64,000 bases of DNA from a virus. Every line of letters starts with the position of its first letter. The first letter of the stretch is position 1. This document shows, one piece after another, positions 3,418 to 57,061 of the stretch. A program made the translations under genes and the position numbers. Where the stretch lies: IMG/VR virus record IMGVR_UViG_3300045988_151747; one strand, given 5' to 3'. The notes beneath the pieces were generated by a model. That model was not told the origin of the DNA, did no database searches, and saw only the letters and a program-made list of their open reading frames with translations.

Positions 3418-6400
3418 AGGGATTTTTCAAGCTCCTTAACTCTCTTATTGAGTCGAGCTACTTCTCTTTTCAGTTTTGTGACTTCATCATCAACTTCCTG
3501 CAAACCTTTCCATACAACAGGGATAAGCCTTTCATAGTCTATGGTGTAATAGTCATTGAATATATCCTTTACCCACTGACTATAACCGCCGGAAAGCAAA
3601 TCCTGTGCGATAAGACCGTAATTCCAGTTATCATGGTTGAACACTTCGGAATTTTCCTTGGCAATAGCGTTCCAGTGATACTTCACACTACGGAATTTTC
3701 GGATAATACCCATAGCGTCATAACCCTGTATATCGGTTTTCAGTCTTATATCCGAAGAGGACGCTTTGGCTGTAATTGCTCCAGTGGCTATGATATTTCC
3801 TGCTACGTGCAATTTTTGTGATGGTGAACTAGTTCCTATTCCAACTCCCGTAGTATTCATTACCGCACAAAGAGAACCTCCTGCGTAAAATGCAACTCCT
3901 GATGAACCTTTTAAATCCAGCCATATTCCGCCCTTAGAAGTTATTACTGCCGCATTGTCTATATTTCCGTCAATGTTCGATGAGCCATTGAACGGTCTGC
4001 CCCACAAAGTTCTAGAAGTAGTAAGCACATCCGCACTAGAAGCCCTACTGTCAGCCAGCGTGGAAGCACCTCCAGCCGATACAGCCACAGACGTGTTGGA
4101 TGTGGATTGCAATCCTCTCCATGCGGAAACGTTAGCACCGTTAGCCCAATATTGGTATTGTATGTACCCATTGTTGTATGAACCAATCTGGCGCACCTGC
4201 AATTCAAAATTGTTTGTTCCTACACGTACAAGACGGATATTATCCATTCCTTTTGCGAATGTAGGAAGATAAAGACGTGCTGAATTTTCAACATTTCCCA
4301 CACTGCTATCAGAAGAACTAGGGCCACTTCTCATATAAAATATGGCACAGAAGTGATAATTCCATACTTCTGACTGTGCATGATTTCCATAGGCGTACCA
4401 TATCCTTCCCCAAACCGTTACTGACCTATATGGTCCGGCTCCCGATTCAGAACAAGCGAATATCTTTTTCCAATTATTATCAGTACCACCTAGAGCGAAC
4501 TGTAATGAATAAGTAGCGGTGGAATTATAATTTCTAGGTATATCCATTATATGCCAATTATCCAACAAGTCCGCATTTAAATTGGTATTCAATGTAGTAG
4601 AAGAACATTGGTAAGGTGCGGTTCCTGTACCTACAGTGGATACAAATCTACTTGACTCAGCATAATTACCTATAAAAACCTTGTTATCTTCCAGTACGAT
4701 ATTGCATAATACATTATTGCTTGAATTTCTTGAATCAATATAAGCATAGGAACTTCCACCGCCCAATACCAACCGTCTAGCCGAATCCCAGTTTGCAGCT
4801 AGATAATTAGTATGGGCAGTAATAGCACCACGAGTATCCAAATTTCCATTTCTAACATTCAACCACATGGCATTGTTTCCTTGCGCTACACTTCCTCCAC
4901 TGAATGTGGGATACCAACCTATACCATACCAAGAACCGAAACGCAAATTTGCATCTGCTGAGGAAGCTGCGTCCGCGCCACCATGAATCCAAACGCCCGA
5001 ATCTTTAACCACTCTTGTTGACCAACCTATATTAAATCCTTTGGTATTATTCATTGTCAAATCCCCTGTCATGGTGTCCCCCGACTTCTTTACGTAGCGT
5101 CCGTCAGCAATAGACGCATAGTTTTCAGTATGTAATAATCTATGCCATGCAGACGTTATCTTATTAGTACCATCATGTTTTCCTCTAAAAAACAAGTCTG
5201 TACTAGTTCCTCCTATCTGTAATGCAGCAAATTTATTGGAATCCCATAAGTTAGCTAATAATCCATATCCAGCAAAAGGGGCGTTATTTGTAGTTTGTTC
5301 TGTTGTTCTTATTTCCTTAATTGCTCTTTCAGAATAAGTATTTAAGTCAAAAGTACCATCACTTCTACCTACACTTAACAAGAACCTTTCAGCGTGAAAT
5401 CCATCAACCATGTCTGCATTAAGATTACCCACAACAGTGTTACTTACCACAATAAATGGAGCCGTGCCACTTGCTACGGTAGACATAAACGGAACATAAC
5501 TTGTAACCCTGTTCGCTGCTATACCAAATAAACTTTTCAAGGCAGAACTTGTACATACGTCCTCCACTGAACCCGCTAAAGGTGATGTGTATGTTTGGAA
5601 CAGGTGGGCAGCGGCTATATGGCGTATTCTATCCGGACCCGAATTACTTACATTTACAGCTTCATTATCGTTACCTATGTCATTCCCTTTAAATAATACC
5701 AGTTCACTACTTTCTGTACCACCCCAGAATCTTTCGGCAATGAACGTATGGTTATAACCTCCTGGTCCATCTCCCGTAGTTCCGTAGAAATATATGGTAT
5801 TGGGAGAAGTGGCGTTTCCTATCTTCAAGTCACCGCTCATGGTGATACTTCCCACACCTGTCATATCACCGCTTACATTAGCCGAACCGTCAAATGACTG
5901 CCCCCATAAAGTCCTTGGGGTTTGCAGTTTTTTAGCCATCTCAGAAGAGTTCTGCAAGTTTACAAAACCCGGATTAACATAAGTGCTCCATGATGGTGCT
6001 TTTGTATCCGCCCTGTATAGTGTTATATTCGTATTAATTCCTCCGTTTCGGTCATGGCTGTATAACAGATTGGCTTGTATTATGGAATAGTTGCTTCCAC
6101 CATAGCAGTATAGTTCTATATTTTTCTTTTCCGCATCATGATAGATACGTATGTTTGACCTATTGATATTGTATGACGCTATCAATAGACCTTCCACTAC
6201 AGCCGTACCCCTAGTTTTAACAACCAACAGACCAAACAAATCACTAAAGGATGAGTGCAGCACAAAGCAAACGTCTGTCATTGTTTCCGTATTACGTATG
6301 GAGTATGTAGCTATTCTACACCATGCAGGTTCAGTGCCTCCTACCGTATATCCGTATTTTATAAGGGCGTTTGATGTGCCGAACGCATGGTATCCGTCCA

Positions 6401-9400
6401 ACAAATCCGCACTTAGATTATCTACGGTTGTATTGCTTGAAACTATCAAAGGTGATAACCCTGTGGCAACAGTTGACATGAATCTAGGTGCTCTTACATC
6501 ATTTGGAGTGACACGTAAAACCAGCTTGTTGTTATGGTCTACGACACCAAATCCTGCACTATCCGTACTACTTCCTCTAAGGTTTCCTATATACCAATAT
6601 GTATCATACCAGTTGAACCTTAATCCGTTTCTTATAGAAGTAAGCCCGCCATCATCGTTCCTGATAACTTCGTTATCTTTATAGATATTGGTAATATCAC
6701 AATTTTCCAATCCCTTGAATACGATTGAGCCGGAAGTGGAAGCGGACGTAAGGGTTCCAGTCATAGTATCGCCAGTCTTTTTCACCCATCTACCGTCCAA
6801 TACGGAAGTAGGGATATGACTTGCGTCTATGACTTTACTTGAATCAGCCTTTTTCAATTCAGCCCACATCTGATTTACGTTGAAAGAATCAATGGTTCCG
6901 TTAACCCATTTTTTTGACGCAGCGTCGTATTTCAATGCCTGTCCGTTTACAGGGTCCGTTATTTCCACGTCATTAAGGTCAGCAAGTGTTCCGGTCTGTG
7001 CTCCGGACATGGACACTCCTTTAGCGGACAACCAATCAGTAGAATAAAATCCCACAGGAGTTGTGCCGTCTTTTTTAATCACGTACACGGCATTGTTCGC
7101 TGCATCCCATTTCAGATAGGCATCTCCAATCTGCAATGATTCGGAAGCCGAAAGGAGTTTAGCCGTAACATTTTGTGAAAACACACCATTTACAGAATAC
7201 ACATTACTCCATCTGTTAGCGGTTCCTCCCAAAGCAGAATTTGCGTCTGTACTTGGAAGAACGCTTGAAGTTTTCATGGTTGCGGAAAAAGTTTTCGCCC
7301 CACTTACAGTTTGAGCTGTAGCAATAGTTACATATTTCCCGTCAGCTTCGGTTTTAGTATATGCATCCGTAATACCATAGCCGGCAAGAGTAGTAGGTTT
7401 CCCAGTGGTTATCTTAGACCAGTCAAGGTTAGGTATATCCGTAGCGGAAAGGTTTGTTCCCGAAGTAACTCTTCCGTAAGCATCTACCATAACCTTGGTG
7501 TACGTACCTGCAACAACTCCCGAAGTACCCAGTGATAAGGTTACATCGGAAGTAAGAGCACCGCCGCCGGACAAACCAGTTCCGGCAATGACTTTCCGTG
7601 AGGATGTTACGTATCTGCTATCAGCAGCACTTTGTGTAAGATACTTATTAGCTGTAAGGTATGAATAGAGCTGGCTCTCATTAAGACCAGCATCTCCCGC
7701 TCTCCAATGAGTTCCGTCAAATACCAGTGCCTTTCCGGCAGCAGCACCTTCAACACCGTCCTCAGTGTCATTAGTCAAAACGTCAACCAGTTGGTATAAT
7801 GTGGAAGCCCCTCCTGTACCACCGCTTCCCTTTGACACTCCTTTAGCAGATATGTAATCGACACCCCAAAAACCGAAATTAGCCCGTATGGACGCAATTG
7901 TCTTTGTATCGTCAGACGGGTCAACCTCATTACCCGAAGCATCCAGTGCAGTGAAAAGTTTGCTGAACGCTGTTTTGTCCATTTTACTCTGCAATATGAC
8001 CGCAAGATTATCACTTTCCTTCATGCCTTGCAGGAAAACTTCAAGCTCAGACCACTTGTTTATAATATCATCCGCATCACTTCCGGTAAGAAAGTCGTTA
8101 AACTTGGTATTCAGTGCATCAAATTCCGATTTAGTGGCAAATGTGCTCCCTTTGGTGAATGTAAGAGAACGTCCATCAGAACCTTTTATGACATCCGTTA
8201 CCGCATTACCCGAACCTGTAACCGTTACATTGGTAAGCCCCGAACTTGCAAGTTTCCAAATCTCATTTATGGTGAAAGCGTTGAAAGTAGCCGAATTGTC
8301 GTTGTTGTCAAACGTTCCTCCCAGTGATTCAAATCCGTAGACGAGGTTGATAAGACCACCACCTCCGCCACTTCCGCCGGAAGATTTTCCCTTTGCGGAA
8401 ATCCAGTCCACAGACCATAACGCATAATTGGCACGTATATTTGTTATAGTGCCTAGCTTTGATTCATCATTTAAGTCAACCTCATTTCCATCATTATCCA
8501 GTGCGGTGAACAGATTGCTTATTCCGGCAGCGGTTTTAGGTTTGTCCGCATACCATTTGTCACCGTTAAATGTGAGTACGCTGCCTTTTGTAGCACCTGC
8601 CACACCTGTTATATCAGCATTTTTCTCCACGTCAAGCAACTGGTACAGGGCTACTGCACCTCCACCACCGCCTCCTGTTCCTCCATCAGATATACCTTTG
8701 GCAGACAGGAATCCCACAGACCACAGGGAATAATTGGCACGTATGGCATATATTTCCGCATTTTCATCATCCGGATTCACTTCGTTCCCCTCTTTGTCAA
8801 GGGCAGTAAAAAGTTTGCTGGAAAGACCTCCCTTATTGGGCATACCTCTCCAGAAACTCCCGTCAAATGTAAGTACATAATCCTTTTCCGCACCGAGTAC
8901 GGCATCCTTGGTATCATTAGGGCTTACATCTATCAATTGGTACATGGCAGCAGCACCCCCACTTCCTGCACCTCCACCACCCGGTGACACTCCTTTAGCG
9001 GACAACCATCGGGTAGTATATGCAGCACCTTCAATTACAAGTGCGTCATTACCTTCATCCCAGTATAATCTTCTTCCTGCAATACGTATTCCCTTACGGA
9101 AGTCCTTTTCACCGAAAACTTCTTGGTCGCCCTTTATTGTGACGTAGTTATCCGAAAGGTATTTTTTCAACAAATCATCAAGAGTTACGGTAACATCACC
9201 ACCGCCACCACCTTCACCGCCGGAAGAGAATCCCCATCGCTGGAGAAGTTTTTCCGTATATACGGCTATGTTGGTTGACAGCATATCTGTAACTTCGTCA
9301 ATGACCGTATCATTAGACCTGCTTGAATCGGTATCGGAAGCACGCTTTAAAAAGGTGTTCTTGAAATCCTCTGCAAGTTCCTTCTGGTAATCTTCATATA

Positions 9401-15945: not shown

Positions 15946-17667
15946 TTATTCCTCCGTTTCCGTTGTTGTTAATACACTGTCATTTCTTAACAATGAGATA
16001 TGGACACTTTCCGTACATTCGGTAGGAATCCACAAAATATCAATGTTAAGCAATTTTCTGTCCTGAGTATTGGGATTGTTGCTCTTGTCACAGATACCTT
16101 GGTATGCAGTGTCAAAATCAACGCTTCTTTCCAAAGCACCGTTATCATATTCGGTCTTGAAGAAGTTTCTGGCTTCCACAAGAGCCTCACGTTTAAGTTC
16201 GGGAGTATTCGGTTTCTGTTCCAAGAAACGCATCTTGGAATTAAGTGAACGTACATAGTAGGAAGTCTGCAATCTCACATGAATACTCTTGTACAAATCA
16301 TTGGTAGAATAAGTACGGGAACTTCCAATGTAATACCCTGTATTCTCAACGTACTGGATAATGTTACATGAGAACTGTTGAACCAGCTTATTAATAACCG
16401 TCTGTGACAGTCTTTGCGGAATCATCTCCATAACATTGTTGAACAGGGAGTCAATTCCTGCCGGTGGAATATGGATAAAGTCACCCTGCAAATAAGGAGT
16501 ACGGATAAATCCTGCACCCAATACAGGACCCATTACAGGAATCATAACAGGGTTTCCGCTATCATCCGGAACCGTACACCATTCCATATAGCTACACAAG
16601 TAACTGATGCCCGAAGTCTGGAACTCCATAGCGTACAATTCGGCAGTACCTTCATCGGCATTTAACGGCAAATTACAGATACCTATGGCGTTTTTCTGCT
16701 CCTTACAATAAGCATGAAGAACTTTAGCCATAGAAAGTGAGTGGTATTCAGTTACTCCGATAATCTGAACATCGAATCCGTCAAACGCAGCAAGACCCGT
16801 AGGACTGTCCGTAGTACCTCCCGGCTTGTAATCGTTCTCCGTGATTTCACCGTCAACACCGTTTGCAAGTTTGGCAACAAATGTCTTATCCTCACGCACC
16901 TTTACAGCAGCACCTTCCACAGCGGTAATGGCACGGCTGGTAAGTGTTAGTTTTGTTGCGGAAGCTATCGCCGCGATAGTACCTACAAGTTTTCCATTAG
17001 AATCATACAGAACATTTCCGACTTTCAATGAAGTGAATGTGGTTCCCGAACCTGTAACTTCATTGCTTGAAGTATTGGCGGTTACAGTGCCGGTTACATC
17101 CTTGAACTTCATTTTTTCAATTTCACCGTTGAAAGTAACAGTAACATATTTGCTCACTTTGTTTACTGCATCCTGAATTTCAGCCAGTGTTCCGTAATTG
17201 TACTGTTCGGGAGTATTGGTCTTGTATTGTACGATAAGAGAGAACATATCTCTTACCAGTGACCCGTAGGAATACAGGGTAACAGTGATTCCGTTAGCCC
17301 ATGCTCCGGGGTCTGGAGTACCTTTATAGGCAGCATTAACCACCATAGTTACCGAAGAACCCGAATCCAAATTCACAGTAGCCGTAGCAGCCTTTGCGGT
17401 CACAGCCACCATTCTGGCAAGGTAAAGGGTAACAGGTGCATCCCCTGCTTCATCAAAGATACTCTTAACAATACGAGGTCCATAAAAAGCATCATTCTGT
17501 CCTCCGAAAATCACATTGAAATCTTCCATAGATGTAATCTTGGTAGCCTTGAAAGCACCACCACGATTAAATTGTCCGGCAAGACCAATGTTTCTCTTGG
17601 AAGCATCTCTAAAAGGGGAAACACCATTGTTTACACCCTCGGTAATTGTTAAACCTACGTTTGCCAT
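15946..17667 (-). CDS. Contractile tail sheath protein
   Basis: 573 aa. The N-terminus (GVxxxE...IGLAGQFNRG...ITSMEDFNVIFGG) and the conserved C-terminal block resemble phage sheath proteins. Followed by tube and tape measure genes. Confidence 0.8.
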   Translation of the reverse strand: MANVGLTITEGVNNGVSPFRDASKRNIGLAGQFNRGGAFKATKITSMEDFNVIFGGQNDAFYGPRIVKSIFDEAGDAPVTLYLARMVAVTAKAATATVNLDSGSSVTMVVNAAYKGTPDPGAWANGITVTLYSYGSLVRDMFSLIVQYKTNTPEQYNYGTLAEIQDAVNKVSKYVTVTFNGEIEKMKFKDVTGTVTANTSSNEVTGSGTTFTSLKVGNVLYDSNGKLVGTIAAIASATKLTLTSRAITAVEGAAVKVREDKTFVAKLANGVDGEITENDYKPGGTTDSPTGLAAFDGFDVQIIGVTEYHSLSMAKVLHAYCKEQKNAIGICNLPLNADEGTAELYAMEFQTSGISYLCSYMEWCTVPDDSGNPVMIPVMGPVLGAGFIRTPYLQGDFIHIPPAGIDSLFNNVMEMIPQRLSQTVINKLVQQFSCNIIQYVENTGYYIGSSRTYSTNDLYKSIHVRLQTSYYVRSLNSKMRFLEQKPNTPELKREALVEARNFFKTEYDNGALERSVDFDTAYQGICDKSNNPNTQDRKLLNIDILWIPTECTESVHISLLRNDSVLTTTETEE

Positions 17668-18112: not shown

Positions 18113-18374
18113 ATTCCTTCAAGATTATTTCGATTTGTTGCTCCAAGACTTCACGTTGCCCTTTCAAGAGAACCATTTCAGCCTCGAATTTAGCTACATC
18201 ACCTTTAAGCTCTTGAATAGTATCATTCAAAACCTTTATTTTCTCCAAGTATTCCTCATAGGTTATCTGTGGAGAACTGGAGGTAACGCTACTCTTTGGC
18301 ACAAATATAATAAATATAAATGCACAAACAGCCAATGCAGCCAAAAATAATATCACAACTTTCTTATTTTTCAT
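17979..18374 (-). CDS. i-spanin-like protein (N-terminal TMD plus coiled coil)
   Basis: MKNKKVVILFLAALAVCAFIFIIF, then a helical Glu/Lys-rich region. Lies immediately after the amidase gene. Confidence 0.5.
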   Translation of the reverse strand: MKNKKVVILFLAALAVCAFIFIIFVPKSSVTSSSPQITYEEYLEKIKVLNDTIQELKGDVAKFEAEMVLLKGQREVLEQQIEIILKEYEKKDSAIANGDWEYNIRFLSDYLSEIDSSRTRHTTGNNPTATH

Positions 18375-18984
18375 CTTTTCCGAAATAGTCGTTTATTGAT
18401 TCGATAGCTTCTACGAGTGAATCTTCAAACCTTTTGTTAGTACGGTGGGATTGAAGTTCCTTAACATCCTCTTTATTGTCCTGAAACAACCATTCAATTA
18501 ATACACCCATATAGCCGTTCCCCATAAGAACGGTAAAATTTTCCTCGAAATCCTTTTCAAGATTGGTAGGCTTGTACATTCTGACTTTAAATTCGGGGAA
18601 GTCTTTTTTGAACTTCTCGATAATAAAGTCAGCGCATACGTCAGATTTGGTAACACCCTTGCTTGTATATACAGCGATTCCACGTGCGTTCATCCATTGA
18701 GAACCATTTCCAGCCGCATTATTATGCAAGGATAACAACAGTTTGGGCTTGTCAGATTTCAGACTGGAAGCGAAATTTTTCCGCTTGGAAAGACCCGGTT
18801 CATTTTCAGAATCGGTAGTCTTGTAAACTTCATATCCCATTGCCTCCAATATTACTTTCAGTTCCCTAACTCTGTCACGGCTCCATCGGTATTCCCTATG
18901 CACACCATCGGGAGAGCGCTTACCTGGAACATCCTCACCATGAGCAGGGTCTAAAATAATCGTAATGTTCTTTTTCATTATCAT
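18364..18984 (-). CDS. N-acetylmuramoyl-L-alanine amidase (endolysin, Amidase_3-like)
   Basis: ITIILDPAHGEDVPGKRSP..., ...LLLSLHNNAAGNG... and ...ARGIAVYTS match zinc amidase motifs. Confidence 0.85.
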   Translation of the reverse strand: MIMKKNITIILDPAHGEDVPGKRSPDGVHREYRWSRDRVRELKVILEAMGYEVYKTTDSENEPGLSKRKNFASSLKSDKPKLLLSLHNNAAGNGSQWMNARGIAVYTSKGVTKSDVCADFIIEKFKKDFPEFKVRMYKPTNLEKDFEENFTVLMGNGYMGVLIEWLFQDNKEDVKELQSHRTNKRFEDSLVEAIESINDYFGKDEK

Positions 18985-19593: not shown

Positions 19594-19953
19594 CTAAAAG
19601 ATAAAAATATCCGGATTGTTTAAAACAAATTCATTATATTCATTTTTGATATTTTCTATCTCTTCATCACTAAGTCCTCCCAACCTCAGATACGGAACAA
19701 AAGAGTACCAGTTAGGAGCTTCACCAATGGAAGCCTCAACACCTCTTGTGTTGTCCGATGGTACGAAACAGCACTGCCATTGTTCCGTCAGAGTTGAATC
19801 CGGCATTTCCGAAGAAAGGGATTTTGTAGGTTCTGCAATCTTTTGCTGATTGAAGTTCAATCTCCATTTTCCTGTGCTTCCGTTTGTACGCAGCAGCACT
19901 AGCATGGGCTGTTTTTGCCCACTGTAATCTGTAAAAAAAGTCTGGATAGACAT
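19594..19953 (-). CDS. Hypothetical ORF overlapping the 3' end of the RT gene (candidate DGR accessory gene)
   Basis: 119-aa ORF. It shares 218 nt with the RT frame (19736-19953) in a different frame and ends just before the promoter at 19560-19590. Confidence 0.4.
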   Translation of the reverse strand: MSIQTFFTDYSGQKQPMLVLLRTNGSTGKWRLNFNQQKIAEPTKSLSSEMPDSTLTEQWQCCFVPSDNTRGVEASIGEAPNWYSFVPYLRLGGLSDEEIENIKNEYNEFVLNNPDIFIF

Positions 19954-20932
19954 CTTTCCAATAATTTATTAAGTTAGACATATTGATGTTCTTGAAACTA
20001 CCGTTCATTCCTGCCCAAGAACGTTCACATTCAAAGTAGTCGGAAGAGTGCCTCAACTCAGAAAGCCTGCTTTCGATTTCTTTCCTGTTCCGTTTCCGAA
20101 GTTTTCTATGTGTAACACCTATTCGGACACCTAAGAAGTCCACCATATTCTTATCAGAAACTTTGTGAATACTCCAGTTAGGTTTTACAGTCTGTCCACC
20201 TTCTGTAACTTTCTGCATATAGTAGGTAACAGCACTCCTAACAGCCTGTTTATTGTTACTAATAAATATTGTATCATCACAGAACCTCAAATAGTCGCAC
20301 TTGAAATTCCTTACAATAGAGTAATCAATATCCAGCAAATTAATATGACCCAAAATATTAGACGAGATATTTCCCAGTACGACATAATCCAATGACAGGA
20401 ACTCCTTGGATAAGGAGATAACCCATTTGTCTTTTATGTACTTGCACAGGATTCTGATTATCGTATCCGGATTACAGGTAGGATAATATTGTCTTATATC
20501 GGCAGAGCCTACAAACACATCATCTTTCTGTCTGCGGATTTTATTTATAGCACGCAGTCTACATTTATGTTGCCCCAGTCCTTTTATAGAACCGTAAACA
20601 TGCCCTCGTTGTAACTTGGGCATGAATACAAATTCTAATATATCGGCTAGGAGTTGGTCAACTATCCTATCTCTAGGAGTAGCGGAATGGATAACCCTGA
20701 TTTTACCGCTGTCCATTTTCTTAAATACATAATAGTCACCATGCTTGTACGTACCGTATTTCAAGTCATTGTACAAGTCTTGGAGATTCTTTGATATATC
20801 AGCGTCAAAGTCTTTCCATTCCTTACGGAGATATTTGTTCCAATGGGAAGATTTAGAGTGCATATCCTCAACAATAGCAATCAATCTTTCCATAGACAGG
20901 AACTTCTTTTTCAACAGACCAACTTTTTTCAT
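19736..20932 (-). CDS. DGR reverse transcriptase
   Basis: KIRVIHSATPRDRIVDQLL (RT motif 2-like), VLGNISSNILGHINL (DGR-type motif 4-like) and RFCDDTIFI (catalytic xxDD). Lies next to a TR/VR pair with adenine-specific mismatches. Confidence 0.85.
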   Translation of the reverse strand: MKKVGLLKKKFLSMERLIAIVEDMHSKSSHWNKYLRKEWKDFDADISKNLQDLYNDLKYGTYKHGDYYVFKKMDSGKIRVIHSATPRDRIVDQLLADILEFVFMPKLQRGHVYGSIKGLGQHKCRLRAINKIRRQKDDVFVGSADIRQYYPTCNPDTIIRILCKYIKDKWVISLSKEFLSLDYVVLGNISSNILGHINLLDIDYSIVRNFKCDYLRFCDDTIFISNNKQAVRSAVTYYMQKVTEGGQTVKPNWSIHKVSDKNMVDFLGVRIGVTHRKLRKRNRKEIESRLSELRHSSDYFECERSWAGMNGSFKNINMSNLINYWKDVYPDFFYRLQWAKTAHASAAAYKRKHRKMEIELQSAKDCRTYKIPFFGNAGFNSDGTMAVLFRTIGQHKRC

Positions 20933-21106
20933 AAATTCTACGTAGTTACCACCCCAAGGGCTTTTCGGACTTACTCCAACTACTAAAGTTGATGCCTACT
21001 AAACGGTTAAAGGCAGCGAAAAGTTTCATTTGGCACTTGCCAAGATGAACAGCCATTCTAATTTTTATTCTAAAACAAATGTTTATCTTAACTTTCATAT
21101 TCTATG

Positions 21107-21213
21107 TGTCCGAACCCGATTGTTAACGTTCCGATTAGAAACCGCATTGTTCAAGTTCAGAGCGAACAAGCCGCAAATAGCGGCGTTGTTCGCATTAGCA
21201 CCCACAATCGGGA
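21107..21213 (-). repeat. DGR template repeat (TR)
   Basis: Aligns without gaps to 21314-21420. All differences sit at TR adenines on the coding strand. In the VR frame, TR reads PIVGANANNAAICGLFALNLNNAVSNRNVNNRVR, rich in AAY codons. Confidence 0.9.
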
Positions 21214-21283
21214 AGGCCATTCACCTCGTGTTCGCTCATATCTTGCGTATTTATATTGTTATTACTCCAAACCCTACTGATTT

Positions 21284-21298
21284 GTTCTCAAGGAGAAC
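21284..21298 (-). promoter_or_regulatory. Hairpin (6-bp stem, 3-nt loop) immediately 3' of the VR and target stop codon; possible DGR target-recognition element or terminator
   Basis: GTTCTC aag GAGAAC starts 1 nt after the TAG stop (21299-21301). Confidence 0.4.
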
Positions 21299-23542
21299 CT
21301 ATTTTTTCAACGTAGCCCGAACCCGATAGTGAACGTACCGACCAGAAACCGCATGGGCCAAGGCCAGAGCGAACAAGCCGCAAAGAGCGGCGTGGTGCGC
21401 AGAAGCACCCACAACCGGGATATTGTTGTCACCTTGAGTATTGCACCCCCATTGTCCATCGCAGAAACAGGTAGTGCTACTTCCATTGTTTACTAAGGGA
21501 ACAGGGTACATTCCGTTTATTTTCTTGATATAGCTACCTTCTGTAAGATTACGAGCCAATTCAACCTTATCTTCAAACTTGGTAGCATCATTTGCGTCCA
21601 CAGTAGCTTTTACAGAAGCAACTTCTGGGTCACGGGTAAAATGGAGATACCGTTTTCCGTCAGTCATCTTAGTTATACCACCGAAACAGCGTATCCAAGC
21701 ATCACCATGCAAAAGGTTCTCACACCACCATAGCTTATAAGGTTTAAACTCGAAACTTTCCGCAGCCACTTCACCAGCAACAGTATTACTGTACTCTGTG
21801 GCTGTAACAGTCCATTGCCCGGTAGCCTGATGTTTGGAATCCAAAAGACCATTCTTGAACCGTCCGTAAGTATCCTGACCAGTAGTCATACCCGGAAGAT
21901 TGGCCTGTATATCTCTTGTCTGGTACTTAGCAACTGCCAACCATGCAAGACAAACGTTCTGCCACCAAGTATATCCTAGCATATCCGAAGAAGTGGCTGA
22001 AAGAGCATTGCAGAAATCCTGAACAGACTGGTTATTTATAACCTGATAATTGCTGCAAGTCTTTATTTTACCACCCTCTACATATTGGTTGTATCTGGGC
22101 ATGAGAATACTTTCATAGGGAATAAATCTGTGATAGCCACATGGTGCTTCCTTATCCAGATTGAAGAATACTCTTGATTTCTTATTGATGGCATCATAGA
22201 AATAAGAGATATTGAAATTAATCATTTCCGCGCCTTGAAAATAATTGGCATCCTCCAAATGACTTGGAGAACCGTCCGCACGTAACGTTACATCATCTTG
22301 TAAATATGCAAAATCAGTACCGTCCAGTTTTTTCTCACAAGGTTTATTAGCAGCTTCCCATTTAGCCATAAAGTAATCATAGTACGGCTGGTTTATGATT
22401 GTGACAGCAGGGTCAGCCTGTGACGAACTCTCTTCATCCCCATATTCAATGGCAAAATAACCTACATCGGCAAGGGCTACTTTGGAAAGTTCATCAAGTT
22501 TGCCGGACAATGCTGATTCGGCAGCTTTTGAACGGGTAATCTCGTCATTGATACTTTTAGTAATTGCAGTATCATCATAGTTTGCCAGTCCTGCAAGTTT
22601 TTCTTTCTCTGAGGTTGTGAAGTTATTGTCCGTATGCACATAGTTTTTATCCGATACGAAATTTCCGTCATTATTAAGCTGGGAAAGTTTTGTAGGTATC
22701 TTTGCAGTGATTTTGGATTCCAATGCAGCAAGCATGGCAGCAAGGTTTTCCGTATCAGTAACACCCTCCAGAAATTTCTTAACTTCATTGAATGAATCAA
22801 TAACCTCATTAGGATTCTCATTAACCAGTGTATTGATGGTTGACTGCAAGGACGCCAGACTTTTCTTTACCTCAGTGTCATTATAGTTAGACAGACCTTC
22901 CAGTTTGTTCTTAAGCGCAGTGGTAAAATCTTCCGTGGAAAGTTGTTTTCCCCCAACTTTATCTACTTTAGAACTGAGATTCTGGGTAAGCTGTGTTCCT
23001 GTGGGAAGTCCTGCAAGTTTTTCTTTTTCAGCAGTCGTATAGTCATTTGTAGACAACCCTTTTCCTGATTCCTTAGGTTGGTAGTTCTGGGAAATGAACA
23101 GTTTTATCTTAACATCAAAATCAGATATTGCCGTAGTTATTGATTGACTTACAGAAGAGGACATTTCAGAAAACATACCTTCAAGAGTGTCCGTTTCGGC
23201 AATTCCACTAAGAAAAGCAACAATCTCATGGAAACGGTTAATGACATTATCCGCATCGGCTGTGTCTGAAATGAAATCGGTGAAGTCCTTGGAAAGTCTG
23301 CTTATAGAACTTGACAGTGTACCTTCCGCTTCTGTGGCACGAGTTATTTCATCAGTAATCATCTTGACAATATCCTTAGCTGCCAAGGTAGCAAGAAACT
23401 GCTTTTCCTCCGCAGTAAAGTTTTCATCAGAGAGTGCCTTTCCAGCCTCCTGTTCCACTTTTGCATTAATGGCGGATATTATCTGGTTAAATTCGTCCGC
23501 TGTGAACTTGTCACCTGTCTTTTTACGTAAATCTAAGTGCAT
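21299..23542 (-). CDS. DGR target protein: tail-fibre-like, with a C-terminal variable ligand-binding domain
   Basis: 747 aa. N-terminal repeats (LSTNDYTTAEKEKLAGL / LSTEDFTTALKNKLEGL / HTDNNFTTSEKEKLAGL) are typical of phage fibres. The C-terminal ...GASAHHAALCGLFALALAHAVSGRYVHYRVR carries the VR. Confidence 0.85.
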   Translation of the reverse strand: MHLDLRKKTGDKFTADEFNQIISAINAKVEQEAGKALSDENFTAEEKQFLATLAAKDIVKMITDEITRATEAEGTLSSSISRLSKDFTDFISDTADADNVINRFHEIVAFLSGIAETDTLEGMFSEMSSSVSQSITTAISDFDVKIKLFISQNYQPKESGKGLSTNDYTTAEKEKLAGLPTGTQLTQNLSSKVDKVGGKQLSTEDFTTALKNKLEGLSNYNDTEVKKSLASLQSTINTLVNENPNEVIDSFNEVKKFLEGVTDTENLAAMLAALESKITAKIPTKLSQLNNDGNFVSDKNYVHTDNNFTTSEKEKLAGLANYDDTAITKSINDEITRSKAAESALSGKLDELSKVALADVGYFAIEYGDEESSSQADPAVTIINQPYYDYFMAKWEAANKPCEKKLDGTDFAYLQDDVTLRADGSPSHLEDANYFQGAEMINFNISYFYDAINKKSRVFFNLDKEAPCGYHRFIPYESILMPRYNQYVEGGKIKTCSNYQVINNQSVQDFCNALSATSSDMLGYTWWQNVCLAWLAVAKYQTRDIQANLPGMTTGQDTYGRFKNGLLDSKHQATGQWTVTATEYSNTVAGEVAAESFEFKPYKLWWCENLLHGDAWIRCFGGITKMTDGKRYLHFTRDPEVASVKATVDANDATKFEDKVELARNLTEGSYIKKINGMYPVPLVNNGSSTTCFCDGQWGCNTQGDNNIPVVGASAHHAALCGLFALALAHAVSGRYVHYRVRATLKK
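21314..21420 (-). repeat. DGR variable repeat (VR) inside the last 40 codons of ORF 21299..23542
   Basis: Shows 16 substitutions against TR over the 104-nt core (18 over 107 nt). Every substitution is at a TR adenine, and no other mismatch is present. Confidence 0.9.
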
Positions 23543-23544
23543 GG

Positions 23545-24186
23545 TTATTCTAAATTTAAGGGCAGGGTGTACGGGAAACCCTCACCCGGATTAATGATAA
23601 TTTCCTCCTCAAACATCTTACTCCGCAGGATAATAGCTTGTACAAGTTCCACCTCTTTAGGTTTGACAGCATAAATCCACGGTTTCAATGTAAACTCATA
23701 GTTCATCTCATACACTCCGTCAGTACGTGGAATATCAGTAGGTCTTACGGTATAGAGAACCACATCACCCACTTCATCACCATCCACCACTTTTTTATTG
23801 AACAGAAATCCTGTCTGACTAACAAATGTAGAGTTGAAATAATCCTGCATGGCTAGAAACTCGTTATAACTCTTTGATACAATGCTGACATCATAACGAA
23901 ATTCCATGCGTACTGGTCTGCGGTACAGGTATCCTGTCAATTCAGAGAAACCCTTTCCGCCAAAATAAGTTTTCATATCCACAAACCAATCTCTGCTAGG
24001 CACAGGCGTATAGTCCATTATGGCGATACACGGATAAATCTGATTCTCCTGTTCCTCCACGTAGTCAAAGCTGGACTTTCTAGCATACCTAGACAACAGG
24101 GTGATACTTTTGTCGCCTACCATAATTTTCAGATTATGGAATTGCCGGAAAAATTCGCTGTGGGTCTGTCGGATAGATGTAAGCAT
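23545..24186 (-). CDS. Hypothetical structural protein (possible tail terminator/neck protein)
   Basis: 213-aa ORF between the head module and the fibre/tail genes. The functional guess is weak. Confidence 0.5.
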   Translation of the reverse strand: MLTSIRQTHSEFFRQFHNLKIMVGDKSITLLSRYARKSSFDYVEEQENQIYPCIAIMDYTPVPSRDWFVDMKTYFGGKGFSELTGYLYRRPVRMEFRYDVSIVSKSYNEFLAMQDYFNSTFVSQTGFLFNKKVVDGDEVGDVVLYTVRPTDIPRTDGVYEMNYEFTLKPWIYAVKPKEVELVQAIILRSKMFEEEIIINPGEGFPYTLPLNLE

Positions 24187-43337: not shown

Positions 43338-43793
43338 CTATATTTTATCTTGAGTCCATGCGGTAAGGAACCAGCTTTTCAATTCATTCCACTTACTTAG
43401 CTGTGTCATTAAATCCGCAGTGACATAATCGTTCTGTTCATTTGCGTCCGAATAAATTTCGTTCTGCAAGTTTGTAAGTTGTATAAGACTTATCAAAGTA
43501 GCCTCAATCATAGCACGTGGTTCAGTAGCATCTTGTGAGCCTTCAACTTCTGAAAGTGAAGCGGCTTCGGGCAGCGTAAGATGGATGGGATAGCCTAACT
43601 GCCTGATTCGTTCCGCAACACTATCAGAATTTGATACGGCTTCATTATACAACTCCTCTAACAATTTATGCAATTCATTAAAACTTGGTCCGACAATATT
43701 CCAGTGGAATACATGGGTCTGTTGGTAGAACACTGTCCATGATGCAAGAAGTGCCCTCATACGTTCTACGGTATCTCTATTAATATTAGCCAT
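43338..43793 (-). CDS. Dps-like ferritin-fold DNA-protection protein
   Basis: ...FYQQTHVFHWNIVGPSFNELHKLLEELYNEAVSNSDSVAERIRQLG... matches the Dps ferroxidase-site pattern (HW.V.G..F..LH...E......D..AER). Confidence 0.8.
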   Translation of the reverse strand: MANINRDTVERMRALLASWTVFYQQTHVFHWNIVGPSFNELHKLLEELYNEAVSNSDSVAERIRQLGYPIHLTLPEAASLSEVEGSQDATEPRAMIEATLISLIQLTNLQNEIYSDANEQNDYVTADLMTQLSKWNELKSWFLTAWTQDKI

Positions 43794-43849: not shown

Positions 43850-44326
43850 CTAAGGAGTCTTATTATTGACAGATTTCCCACAGATTTTCAGTATTCTAGC
43901 CTTACGGGCATATTCATCACACCATCTGTTAACAGCATACCTCGGATGTTTTATATCCATGTGCCCCCGTATGTTCTTCGCATAATAAGAGGGAAAATTC
44001 CTATCAAGAATACTCTGCATTTCAATACGCAATCTTTCAATTGCTTCATTTTTATACGTATGTTTTTTCCTGTTTACTATATCCCTGCAACATTTGTTAT
44101 CCACATTGATAACAAGAATCTCAACGGGGATTTTGTTTTTCATCACCCAGTGTATCCCGTTCATTACAGACCATATCTCGGCAATATTGGAATCCCACGT
44201 GCGATTCTTGAACGGCGCCCATATTTTTACAGTGACTAAATCACAATTAATCCAGAGCGCATAACCGGCTTCTCCAGTAGCAGGATTAACAGAAGCGTCC
44301 GAATTGATTGTGCAATAACCTTTCAT
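43850..44326 (-). CDS. RNase H (RNase HI-like)
   Basis: The DEDD pattern is present: INSDAS, NIAEIW, INVDNK and IRGHMD...NRWCDEYARKA (compare E. coli [20 protein letters not shown]). Confidence 0.8.
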   Translation of the reverse strand: MKGYCTINSDASVNPATGEAGYALWINCDLVTVKIWAPFKNRTWDSNIAEIWSVMNGIHWVMKNKIPVEILVINVDNKCCRDIVNRKKHTYKNEAIERLRIEMQSILDRNFPSYYAKNIRGHMDIKHPRYAVNRWCDEYARKARILKICGKSVNNKTP

Positions 44327-47712: not shown

Positions 47713-48195
47713 TTATACGTATTCACCTAGTTCAGAGGCCAATATTTTTCGTGCAGAGAATATCCGGCTCTTTACCGTACCCATAGGAATAGATAACTGG
47801 TCGGATATTTCTTGGTAGGAAAACCCATTCATGTACATGGTAATCGGTTCATTCAGAAAAGGCGGAAGTTTTCTTACCGTTTCGAGAATTTCCTCTTGTA
47901 CAAGATGGTCGCCACTATTGTCTATACGGGTAGATATAGGAGTGAGATTTTCAAAATGATACCGACTGTTCCATCTAACATCATTAATGAAAATATTTCT
48001 CATTACAGTAGCAGACCAAGCCCCGAAAAATGTACCGTCCTCATACTTATCATAGTTTTCCAGTACCTTTAAACAGGTGTCCTGAAATAATTCCTCGGCT
48101 ACATCCGGGTCTTTACATAGAAATTTTGCGTATGTGTGTAAACGGGTAAACTGGCTGACAAGTTGTTTACCCACTTCATCCCTCGTCATATTCAT
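47713..48195 (-). CDS. ECF-type sigma-70 family RNA polymerase sigma factor
   Basis: Region 2 (ELFQDTCLKVLENYDKYED...FGAWSATVMRNIFINDVR) and region 4 HTH (YMNGFSYQEISDQLSIPMGTVKSRIFSARKIL) are both present. Confidence 0.85.
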   Translation of the reverse strand: MNMTRDEVGKQLVSQFTRLHTYAKFLCKDPDVAEELFQDTCLKVLENYDKYEDGTFFGAWSATVMRNIFINDVRWNSRYHFENLTPISTRIDNSGDHLVQEEILETVRKLPPFLNEPITMYMNGFSYQEISDQLSIPMGTVKSRIFSARKILASELGEYV

Positions 48196-53509: not shown

Positions 53510-54259
53510 TTACAAGTCTTTTGGAATATATACTTTATTAATTTGATTCTTGAACACATCATACATACATCCCATCTTGTGTGCCTGCATATTCAATATG
53601 ACAAAACTTGACAGGTTATCCTTGGATAGGTTTTCCATAAGTTCGGCATAAGTAAGTTTTGAACCCCACATAAGTCCGGCAGCTATTTTACCTTTAAATT
53701 TCGGGTGTGCACCTATCCATTCTTTCATTTGTTCATAGTCGGAAATATCATCTATGACAAATTTAAGATAATCGTGTTCATCCATAAGCACCCAGTTTTC
53801 CGAGCGCATTTTTGTAGTTTCTCCTGTACTGCCTAGTTTATAGTCAACCACAAAAGATATACGATTTACGTACTCTCCGCCCATGTCACCATAGTAATTT
53901 CTGAAAGGAACATAATTGGCTAGGGAAACAGACCCGTTAGTTTCTACCACGATAAGAAAGTTAGCTTGAATGAGGTCTGTAATCAACTTAGGAATATCTG
54001 GGCGCTTCAACAATGGTTCACCACCTGTAAGGCAAATGATGTTATGCCCTATATCATGGCACGTGGCTAGTATTTCGTCAAGTCCCATTTCGGTTCCACT
54101 ACTCATTTCCAATGCCTCCGGAGTATCACAAAGAACTCCTTTGGTTGATTTGTAACATCTCAAGTTACATCCTGATAAACGGATAAAAGTACATGGCATA
54201 CCGATTCCGAATCGGTTTACCTCACCCATATAGCCGGGATAGATGCTGTTTATTTTCAT
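53510..54259 (-). CDS. queE: 7-carboxy-7-deazaguanine synthase (QueE, radical SAM)
   Basis: ...GEVNRFGIGMPCTFIRLSGCNLRCYKSTKGVLCDTPEAL... and ...ICLTGGEPLL... match QueE cluster- and SAM-binding motifs. Confidence 0.85.
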   Translation of the reverse strand: MKINSIYPGYMGEVNRFGIGMPCTFIRLSGCNLRCYKSTKGVLCDTPEALEMSSGTEMGLDEILATCHDIGHNIICLTGGEPLLKRPDIPKLITDLIQANFLIVVETNGSVSLANYVPFRNYYGDMGGEYVNRISFVVDYKLGSTGETTKMRSENWVLMDEHDYLKFVIDDISDYEQMKEWIGAHPKFKGKIAAGLMWGSKLTYAELMENLSKDNLSSFVILNMQAHKMGCMYDVFKNQINKVYIPKDL

Positions 54260-55541: not shown

Positions 55542-56471
55542 CTATCTTCTTGTTTTATCGTAATACAAAACAGGTTTATTCTTTAGCTTGCAGTGAGCGA
55601 TTTTAAGAAATTCCCTGCGGAATCCCAACCACCCTAGCAGGTTCATGTTATTTATAGGAATACGCTTTTCACCACGTATATCTTCCATACTCAGCCCGGC
55701 ATCCTCATATTTGATACGGTTAGCCTTTCTTCTGTACTTATGTTTGTAGTCAATGGTGCTGAAATTTTTCCCGTCATAGTTATAAGTAGTACCAAAACGA
55801 GTACCTCCTAACCATGTTACAGAATCCACGGAAAAGAAAGGGAATCTTTGCAACAGGTTCATTTCGGTCCAAGCAAACCCATGTACTTTTGTTCCATAGG
55901 CATTTGTAATGCGATATATCTCGGCAGCATTATCTTTCATAGTCTGGTTACATCCTACGTAGTTATGTTGCTGGCAATACTCTTTAAGCCGTAACAGACC
56001 AGTCTTGTCACCCTGTGCGTCCTGATGCACCACATATACTACGTTTATATCCTTTTCGAGCGGTTTGAAATATTTTTCATTCCATCGGTCAACAACTTCC
56101 CTACCTACAATCATGTCCAAGTCAAGGTTTGCAGCGACAAATATAAACTTTTTATTTTCATGCAACCAAGCCACGTATTCCTCCAAATAAGGAAGCCAGT
56201 ATTCTTCGGTAGTCATTTTATGCTCCACTTTTTTACCCATAAAGGAGAAAGCTCCGGAGTCCGTCATAAATATACCACCTTCCTTATGTTGTTTCTCCAA
56301 TTGCGGTGGGTAAAATTTGAGTGACTTTCTCAAGTAGAAGTAAGAAACCAACGTGTCCTTTATACCGAAATCCCGTAATGTGGTATAATCACCTACGGAT
56401 GATGCGGAAAAGAACAGAGTGGCTTTTCTTTTACTCAACTCATTACCTTCTTCAAGAACTCTGCGCTCCAT
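55542..56471 (-). CDS. dpdA: DpdA-like DNA-guanine transglycosylase (TGT superfamily)
   Basis: ...GIFMTDSGAFSFMGK... resembles the DSGAF active-site block of phage DpdA. Lies next to queC/queE. Confidence 0.65.
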   Translation of the reverse strand: MERRVLEEGNELSKRKATLFFSASSVGDYTTLRDFGIKDTLVSYFYLRKSLKFYPPQLEKQHKEGGIFMTDSGAFSFMGKKVEHKMTTEEYWLPYLEEYVAWLHENKKFIFVAANLDLDMIVGREVVDRWNEKYFKPLEKDINVVYVVHQDAQGDKTGLLRLKEYCQQHNYVGCNQTMKDNAAEIYRITNAYGTKVHGFAWTEMNLLQRFPFFSVDSVTWLGGTRFGTTYNYDGKNFSTIDYKHKYRRKANRIKYEDAGLSMEDIRGEKRIPINNMNLLGWLGFRREFLKIAHCKLKNKPVLYYDKTRR

Positions 56472-57061
56472 TTTTCCCTACGTAATGAAGTTATTACTTT
56501 CTGGCATTTGTCACATACTCCGCAATTGCGCTTTTCGTTTTCCCCATCGGGGCAAAAAGTAAGATGCGAGTAATCTAGCGTACTTAGTTTCTTAGCCAGC
56601 TTTACAAACGGCACATTCATTGCCGGAGCAAGAAGTTTAATCTTATAAGATTTGGCGAACAAATATCTTGCCTCTTCATAGAAAAGATAACCACCGTCAA
56701 ACCATGAACTTCCCAAATCCACAGCACCGTATGCCACTTTCTTTATTCCCATAGCAGTAGCATAATTACCTGCCATAGAAAGAAACAAAAGATTCCGGCA
56801 GGGAATATCCACATTATGCACGTTACCATCCTTATCACGAATAGGCTCAAACTGTAAGGGGTAAGTTACTTTGCGGAAACTCTTGACGGAATCTTTATAG
56901 ACTTCAATATAATAACCTATTGCGGACAGTTCTTTTTCAATATTGTCCTGCCCATAGTCAACATAGAACAAATGAATATCATACGATTTGGAGAGTTTAT
57001 CCAGATTATACAGGCTTTCAAAACCTCCAGTAAACAGCAAAACTACTTTTTCTCTTTTCAT
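56435..57061 (-). CDS. queC: QueC-like PP-loop ATPase (7-cyano-7-deazaguanine synthase family, divergent)
   Basis: The PP-loop-like VVLLFTGGFES replaces SGGxDS. A C-terminal Cys cluster is present (FCPDGENEKRNCGVCDKCQ). Confidence 0.6.
   Translation of the reverse strand: MKREKVVLLFTGGFESLYNLDKLSKSYDIHLFYVDYGQDNIEKELSAIGYYIEVYKDSVKSFRKVTYPLQFEPIRDKDGNVHNVDIPCRNLLFLSMAGNYATAMGIKKVAYGAVDLGSSWFDGGYLFYEEARYLFAKSYKIKLLAPAMNVPFVKLAKKLSTLDYSHLTFCPDGENEKRNCGVCDKCQKVITSLRREKWSAEFLKKVMS

Follow-up and report, generated by a model that had tools for sequence, protein, structure and literature searches.

A very probably active diversity-generating retroelement without accessory genes, and its fibre-like target protein, in a phage of the human gut

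The IMG/VR virus record IMGVR_UViG_3300045988_151747 was analysed as a stretch of 64,000 nucleotides (nt), referred to as the window. Its minus strand carries a gene for a fibre-like protein of 747 amino acids (aa) that ends in a variable repeat (VR), followed by a template repeat (TR) and a gene for a reverse transcriptase (RT). We conclude that this cassette is very probably a functional and currently active diversity-generating retroelement (DGR) with the accessory-less architecture 'target-VR / TR / RT'. The anatomy of TR and VR, the affinity of the RT to DGR enzymes, the copying of TR into VR, and a natural hypervariability that is restricted to adenines and turns over fast are directly supported. 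An earlier preliminary description of this DNA had taken the adenine-specific difference between TR and VR as the mark of a DGR, and the anatomy, the RT affinity and the population variation support that view.

A repeat finder returned a single pair of direct repeats, which align without gaps over 104 nt at 85% identity with a spacing of 207 nt (Table 1). On the coding minus strand the two copies differ at 16 positions. In each case TR has an adenine and VR another base (C at 8 positions, G at 5, T at 3), and 6 of the 22 TR adenines are retained in VR. The probability that 16/16 mismatches fall on the 22 adenines of 104 nt is 2.8e-14 (hypergeometric). Only two copies in the 64-kb window match the A-masked TR pattern, TR and VR themselves, with 0 expected by chance. 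In the open reading frame (ORF) 21299–23542(-), every mismatch occupies codon position 1 or 2, altering 12 codons (aa 710, 714, 716, 717, 720, 727, 729, 730, 734, 736, 738 and 739). The preliminary description had reported the same gap-free alignment at the same coordinates, the restriction of all core differences to adenines (16 of 22 changed), the TR and VR peptides, and 12 diversified codons of AAY or ATT type; the repeat finder, the translations and the codon mapping agree with it on each. An optional extension of the repeats to 107 nt (21107–21109 and 21314–21316) finds no support. Its positions are near-constant in 12 related genomes, the first being G in 11/12 and the third T in 12/12, unlike true diversified sites, and aa 744 falls outside the variable columns. 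Since the 22 TR adenines sit at positions 1 and 2 of ten AAY and two ATT codons, TR could yield up to ~9e12 stop-free variants at 12 residues of the C-terminal domain; its theoretical repertoire is 1.76e13 DNA or 9.2e12 protein variants, none with a stop codon.

The same phage was found in 13 IMG/VR contigs and 7 metagenome contigs, one of which has a header reading human gut metagenome. Through protein searches, another 105 different 747-aa forms of the target were obtained, 94–98% identical across the queried C-terminal 376 aa, and entropy was computed for these together with the window's own protein (n=106). The 12 columns of highest entropy among all 747 are precisely the 12 A-containing TR codons. 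Their mean entropy is 2.73 bits, compared with 0.067 elsewhere and 0.023 at the A-free VR codons. Columns of AAY codons reach 2.6–3.2 bits with 10–13 residues, and those of ATT codons 1.8–1.9 bits with 4–5 residues. The preliminary description had proposed asking whether variation is confined to positions matching TR adenines; in more than 100 natural copies it is confined to the 12 TR-adenine codons. At the DNA level, 68% of TR-A positions are substituted over 19 distinct VR sequences (G 115, C 100, T 69, A 134).

TR is near-constant in 12 related IMG/VR genomes. Each of their VRs is distinct and shows 10–18 differences from its own TR, almost all at adenines. The divergence of VR from that of the window is saturated at 13–19%, regardless of whether the 7–8 kb of flanking sequence diverges by 0.63% (L011) or by 10%. 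One relative diverges from the window by 0.63% over 7.1 kb of flanks and has a VR that differs from the window's at 18/104 positions. VR turnover is therefore fast and decoupled from the backbone. Non-adenine polymorphisms of TR (T88G; TAT to GGC in L019 and L020) recur in the VRs that belong to these TRs, which is direct evidence of information flow from TR to VR.

The same layout is found in all eight of a set of distant cassettes whose RTs are 33–46% identical: a target of 415–510 aa, VR, 54–271 nt, TR, 135–215 nt, and RT. Their TR/VR pairs show 10–22 mismatches each, which are adenine-only in 7/8; the exception, L034, has 17 mismatches at adenines and 2 T mismatches at the 3' edge. The C-terminal domain of ~376 aa in the window target recurs in the targets of these distant cassettes.

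The RT ORF starts 177 nt past TR, in accordance with the preliminary estimate of ~175 nt. Its product matches the RT families Pfam RVT_1 (E 1.9e-9) and PHROG 1423 'reverse transcriptase' (E 8.8e-45). Among solved structures the best match is 8ub7, the DGR enzyme bRT of a Bordetella phage (single-sequence E 2e-13). A 25-member RT profile searched against the PDB places bRT 8ub7 first (E 3.4e-28, 101.7 bits), ahead of the group II intron RT 7uim (1.3e-11) and retron-type RTs (1.8e-8 or worse), a grouping that is a similarity ranking and not a formal phylogeny. By tblastn, the GenBank phage matches are exclusively RTs of phages with known DGRs (crAss-like, BPP-1, BIP-1, BMP-1 and ANMV-1), at 24–30% identity. 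A different origin would be that the RT comes from another retroelement, such as a group II intron, a retron or a defence system, and that TR and VR are an unrelated duplication under diversifying selection. No DGR RT model was matched in NCBIfam or PADLOC: in NCBIfam the top-scoring model is one for group II intron RTs (67 bits, with a cut-off of 300 bits), and PADLOC gave weak generic RT and UG matches. However, these searches yielded just sub-threshold matches to generic or non-DGR models (group II, retron or UG), far below the family cut-offs, and the PDB profile puts bRT 17 orders of magnitude ahead of group II RTs. Adenine-only differences that recur independently in nine cassettes and in more than 100 natural alleles cannot arise by ordinary selection, and no Rfam family of any kind, intron RNAs included, matches 20800–21500. 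We regard an origin from another retroelement as already effectively refuted.

The RT motifs are DGR-like in part, as the preliminary description had claimed without this qualification. DGR RTs carry the domain-4 core [I/V/L]GxxxS, whereas group II intron and retroviral RTs carry QGxxxSP (PMC3521204, PMC7826257). The window RT has this core as L186-G-N-I-S-S, and its G and S are invariant in 25/25 clade members. What does not conform is the end of the motif, LGNISSN and not ...SQ. In the family alignment, LGxxSSNxxGH and RFCDD are invariant, and their counterparts in bRT are IGSLTSQ and YMDD. Among 1.84 billion representative proteins, ~5 clusters (50% identity) score above 460 bits, followed by a sharp fall to ~130–220 bits. 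All clade members combine SN with FCDD, and the next-nearest proteins have GNxxSQ with Y[C/M/A]DD.

Table 1. Features of the cassette and two genes of its neighbourhood, with positions in the window.
Feature	Position	Strand	Remarks
Target, 747-aa fibre-like protein	21299–23542	minus	N-terminal ~370 aa repeat-containing shaft; C-terminal ~376 aa conserved variable domain ending in VR
VR	21317–21420	minus	Variable repeat; encodes aa 709–743 of the 747-aa ORF; 12 diversified codons
GC-rich 3' end common to VR and TR, ATCGGGTTCGG	21317–21327	minus	First part of an IMH-like element; 3' limit of mutagenesis
VR-specific 18 nt, GCTACGTTGAAAAAATAG, stop codon included	21299–21316	minus	Differs from the post-TR sequence ACACATAG...
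Perfect hairpin GTTCTC-CTT-GAGAAC	21284–21298	minus	Directly after the stop codon; predicted fold, 6-bp; conserved in relatives
TR	21110–21213	minus	Template; 22 adenines, held in 10 AAY and 2 ATT codons
TR-RT spacer	20933–21109	minus	Presumed 3' part of the DGR RNA
Spacer hairpin TTGGC-AAGT-GCCAA	21043–21030	minus
Spacer motif AGUAGG	21000–20995	minus	Invariant in 9 cassettes
Spacer variable hairpin CAACU/AGUUG	20991–20977	minus	Between the two invariant motifs
Spacer motif A.UCCGAA	20972–20964	minus	Invariant in 9 cassettes
DGR reverse transcriptase, 398 aa	19736–20932	minus	Motif 4 LGNISSN 20357–20377; catalytic FCDD 20273–20284; basic C-terminal tail
Endolysin of the lysis cassette	18364–18984
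Sheath gene	15946–17667

Several observations weigh against reading the cassette as a working DGR with a host-range target. The terminal Gln of the SQ motif is missing, its place being taken by Asn192 in the window and in every clade member, and the RT has FCDD in place of YxDD. No Avd (PF05635-type) appears among the best 25 of the 35 Pfam families matched by the 76 minus-strand ORFs of at least 90 aa in the window. We found no promoter for the TR RNA, and a scan for sigma-70 promoters and terminators remained at chance level. Assemblies from many samples, and not reads from a single population, supply the population evidence. In the target, an hhalign comparison with Mtd is non-significant (E 0.45), with VR on VR as the sole aligned segment, and two AlphaFold2 runs on shallow alignments of the variable domain reached a mean pLDDT of 34.1 and 33.8, too low to assign a fold. 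The case for a host-range role consists solely of gene position and weak tail-fibre homology.

Departures from the SQ dipeptide and DGRs without Avd are both known. The signature [I/V/L]GxxxSQ is found in ~90% of elements, with functional exceptions ending in SP, SH, NQ, PA, AQ or VQ, and natural variants of the SQ dipeptide have A-biased VRs (PMC3521204). In bRT, adenine misincorporation is unaffected by Q187P but lowered by R74A and I181N (PMC7826257). The equivalents of bRT Arg74 and Ile181 are conserved in the window RT as R79 and L186. Given the functional exceptions and the normal behaviour of Q187P, we take SN as a peculiarity of the clade and not as grounds for exclusion. As for Avd, 74% of catalogued DGRs carry it and 26% are without it (PMC5758913); BPP-1, the sole DGR studied biochemically, requires it. 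The accessory-less TR-RT 'Architecture A' accounts for 75/372 elements, and the avd-less Lineage 3 includes a sub-lineage, 3A, restricted to Bacteroides and relatives (PMC5758913). The absence of Avd is thus not disqualifying. The element had been called a complete DGR, which is right for an accessory-less TR-RT architecture, with the proviso that no Avd gene was detected. There is no ORF in the interval between VR and TR. The ORF at 19594–19953, which overlaps the 3' end of the RT gene, was considered as an accessory gene and rejected; it has no family match, and the conserved frame there is the RT's own.

The TR alleles themselves (n=8; window 21110–21213 versus L003, L005/L011, L007/L018, L019/L020, L027 and L031) vary mainly at adenines, with 13/22 A sites polymorphic against 7/82 non-A sites. 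L018 has lost 7 adenines, L031 4 and L027 3. Such a pattern suggests occasional homing of cDNA into TR, or VR-to-TR gene conversion, that is, an imperfect protection of the template. As for the RT gene, it is intact in 12/13 relatives. Decay is seen in L023, which has a truncated RT of 283 aa (6001–6852) in a locus 50 nt shorter, together with a 3-nt insertion in VR (~5512). In rare RT variants of 445 aa (P0004, P0005), a frameshift at residue 332 switches translation to the frame of the overlapping ORF 19594–19953.

These cases of decay in the lineage (the truncated RT, the frameshifted RTs, and TR alleles lacking 3–7 adenines), as well as a variation known from assemblies and not from within-population reads, would fit a cassette in the window that was recently inactivated, its TR/VR pattern being a record of past activity and its variation among genomes inherited and not ongoing. 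We consider such a relic highly improbable. The RT ORF of the window is full length and keeps all clade-invariant residues, its TR is the consensus allele with 22/22 adenines present, and the genome with 0.63% flank divergence already has the strongly altered VR described above.

The invariant GC-rich end of the repeats had been likened to an initiation of mutagenic homing (IMH) element. The sequence ATCGGGTTCGG is identical in TR and VR of 12/12 close relatives, and beyond it there is no A-type variation. It is just the start of an IMH-like element, though; the VR-specific 18 nt and the hairpin behind them had been overlooked. In BPP-1, the IMH consists of a GC-rich part and a distal part, IMH* differs distally, and an inverted repeat lies downstream (PMC5758913). 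The hairpin after VR in the window is a candidate DGR target-recognition hairpin or cruciform, and no T-run follows it on the coding strand. In the divergent cassettes, the post-VR hairpins have other sequences with loops of 3–5 nt. Their mean score is 15.2, versus 9.9 +/- 4.0 for shuffles and 11.8 for post-TR sequences. This enrichment in nine cassettes may be regarded as supportive but not decisive, and some TR flanks fold too.

The spacer between TR and RT is almost constant among close relatives. Across nine divergent cassettes (window, L024, L025 and L034–L039), the motifs AGUAGG and A.UCCGAA are kept in the same order, and in 7/9 a hairpin of varying sequence and length stands between them. 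The upstream spacer hairpin followed by AAUNAAAC also recurs with differing stem sequences, as judged by eye, and the conserved architecture ends 7–44 nt before the RT start. This structural model is based on manual inspection and per-sequence folds. RNAalifold gave no consensus structure on the spacer alignment because of large variable insertions, and the single-sequence fold of the spacer is no better than that of shuffles (z = -0.37). Neither AGUAGG nor A.UCCGAA was found in the spacers of BPP-1 or crAss cr52_1. A pairing of UCCGAA with the 3' end of TR was dropped; TTCGGA is present in the window but unconserved in other cassettes.

Some of the distant cassettes carry further genes. A conserved protein of 97–149 aa follows the RT directly, often overlapping it, in eight of nine distant cassettes (pairwise E down to 9e-30; L024:9154–9507, L025:9064–9480, L034:3839–4177, L035:4679–5104, L037:1893–2342, L038:4720–5013, L039:4765–5112). 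It could be assigned to nothing in Pfam, PDB or PHROG, and the window has no protein like it (best hidden Markov model E 0.86). Either the DGR can do without this candidate accessory gene or its presence is mere synteny. A Pfam RNase_H gene is found ~3 kb upstream of the target in four distant cassettes (L025:4671–5132, L026:971–1432, L035:1–282, L039:1–435).

By analogy with BPP-1, an RNA spanning TR and the ~177-nt spacer would be bound by the 398-aa RT. The enzyme would reverse-transcribe TR accurately at every template base but adenine, opposite which any nucleotide could be placed, and the resulting cDNA would substitute for VR in the 3'-terminal region of the 747-aa gene. The 3' boundary of homing would be defined by the shared ATCGGGTTCGG, the VR-specific 18 nt and the downstream hairpin, and the 5' boundary by the place where the homology of TR and VR ends. 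We infer that mutagenic homing proceeds here without Avd, with the invariant spacer motifs and the hairpin acting in priming and target recognition. It is a tentative possibility, short of even odds, that the element stands for a mechanistically distinct, Avd-independent DGR lineage with a remodelled pocket for deoxynucleotide and template, a structured spacer RNA of its own that replaces Avd-dependent positioning and priming, and a weak discrimination between donor and recipient, through which TR too would at times be mutagenised at adenines.

The target matches phrog_5302 'tail protein' over aa 503–740 (E 1.6e-12) and phrog_32680, and its N-terminal half holds repeats of the fibre type and matches tail-fibre families of PHROG. 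No Pfam or PDB sequence match was obtained for the domain, even with a 9-sequence profile. The family consensus GGxSxxGSxCGxFA...RGR presumably resembles C-type lectin (CLec-type) VRs, a resemblance that we take as a lead only. The shaft occurs naturally in forms of 747, 607 (without aa 172–311), 540 and 478 aa (without aa 83–351), all with the same N-terminus and variable domain. In the window, the shaft holds 41-nt internal repeats (22587–22627 and 23007–23047), 420 nt apart. These repeats may be the cause of the in-frame shaft deletions.

In our opinion the 747-aa protein is rather likely a host-range or adsorption determinant. As a fibre that binds a ligand or receptor, it would shift host or adsorption specificity through its diversification. 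The PHROG matches to tail and tail-fibre families agree with this, as does the target of BPP-1, the sole experimentally studied phage DGR, which is a tropism determinant (PMC5758913). We find it somewhat unlikely, with the DGR itself being real, that the target is instead an accessory fibre of the neck, whisker or decoration type and not the primary receptor-binding protein. The gene does lie outside the baseplate and fibre module downstream of a tape-measure-sized ORF of 2003 aa, between p213 and the lysis and sheath genes. The phage BS162P1 is without target, TR and RT but keeps the flanking genes; virion assembly in the lineage can therefore do without the protein, and the freely polymorphic shaft length (747/607/540/478 aa) points in the same direction. 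The tip of such an accessory fibre might bind changeable glycans, for example phase-variable Bacteroides capsules, or mucus, and would tune adsorption efficiency or retention and not host switching.

The phage is a contractile-tailed phage of ~90 kb from human-gut Bacteroides-type hosts, and long contigs of it are mostly ~88–91 kb. The target gene is flanked by the head/neck-proximal gene p213 (23545–24186) on one side, and by the RT gene, the lysis cassette and the sheath gene on the other. The large terminase shares 73% identity with its counterpart in Bacteroides phage BS162P1, a phage of B. salyersiae with an 88.9-kb genome. In this nearest cultured relative, the flanking genes stand in the same order but target, TR and RT are missing, which makes the ~3.9-kb cassette an accessory module. 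In BS162P1 (OP172706.1, L040: 20291–23222), two small ORFs take the cassette's place between the p213 homologue and the lysis genes. The cassette itself has no megablast match among GenBank phages. An assignment to the 'Flandersviridae' or 'Quimbyviridae' of Benler was rejected, as it finds no support in the text of that paper (PMC8008677).

The window also holds genes for 7-deazaguanine/queuosine precursors, namely QueC (56435–57061) and a QueE-like radical SAM / 4Fe-4S protein (53510–54259); GTP cyclohydrolase I and a QueD-like PTPS were matched as well, with positions not localised. Judged from these matches, the pathway would imply modified guanines in the phage DNA. Further genes encode an ECF-type sigma factor (47713–48195), a ferritin-like protein (43338–43793) and a weak RNase H-like (RVT_3) protein (43850–44326).

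DGRs of gut phages, avd-less architectures and population-level variation of VR are already known (PMC5758913, PMC8008677). Of possible specialist interest are the discrete SN/FCDD sub-clade of RTs, the clade-specific motifs of the spacer RNA, the many natural alleles and the signs of erosion of TR adenines. As a natural system, the phage is unusually clean: hundreds of datasets from the human gut contain it in assembled form, and more than 100 distinct VR alleles occur on its near-identical backbone. A minimal Avd-less cassette with deviant RT motifs and spacer motifs makes a good candidate for studying how adenine mutagenesis and the priming of cDNA proceed without Avd. In vivo, it might reveal the Bacteroides surface structures that a diversified fibre follows, and the apparent erosion of TR adenines is relevant to whether and how DGRs keep their template safe.

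The DGR of BPP-1, arranged as mtd-VR / avd / TR / brt, is the experimental paradigm of these elements. The window has the same order of target-VR, TR and RT, and in either element VR lies at the very 3' end of a gene associated with the tail. The two TRs contain 22 adenines each, mutagenesis is adenine-only in both elements (bRT figure from PMC7826257), and in both the shared GC-rich 3' end precedes VR-specific sequence and a hairpin (PMC5758913). The closest solved structure to the window RT is bRT 8ub7. On the other hand, no avd gene was detected in the window, its RT is just ~24% identical to bRT, and this RT has a motif 4 that ends in SN and not SQ, and FCDD and not YMDD. The two spacers have no motif in common, and the target has no detectable sequence similarity to Mtd.

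By its architecture, the cassette can be likened to Architecture A1 and Lineage 3/3A, which have a TR-RT core with the target upstream, lack Avd, HRDC, MSL and CH1, and occur in Bacteroides-type hosts (PMC5758913). For accessory-less elements, Avd-independent homing was suggested by Wu et al. 2018 (PMC5758913). The main text of that work does not describe the SN/FCDD combination or the spacer motifs, nor does it mention the GxxxSQ motif or hairpins (PMC5758913).

The crAss-like phage cr52_1 (NC_055888) is likewise a human-gut phage of Bacteroidota, with a tail protein, a gap of ~265 nt and an RT, and no Avd between them. Its target is annotated as 'similar to sulfatase, major tropism determinant'. 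In contrast, its RT is 28% identical to that of the window, its spacer is without AGUAGG/UCCGAA, and it belongs to the podovirus-like Crassvirales, whereas the present phage is contractile-tailed. The annotated DGR target of cr52_1 (L042, NC_055888.1: 3495–4736) contains 2 in-frame stops under translation table 11, consistent with stop-codon recoding.

Quimbyvirus and Hankyphage differ from the present phage in being temperate, and Quimbyvirus has a frameshifted RT and two targets (PMC8008677). Their RTs are not close relatives of the window RT, the GenBank phage matches of which stay below 30% identity. The likeness lies in their ecology and variation: they too are abundant gut Bacteroides phages, in which near-identical metagenomic genomes vary in VR at no sites but ~22 adenines (PMC8008677).

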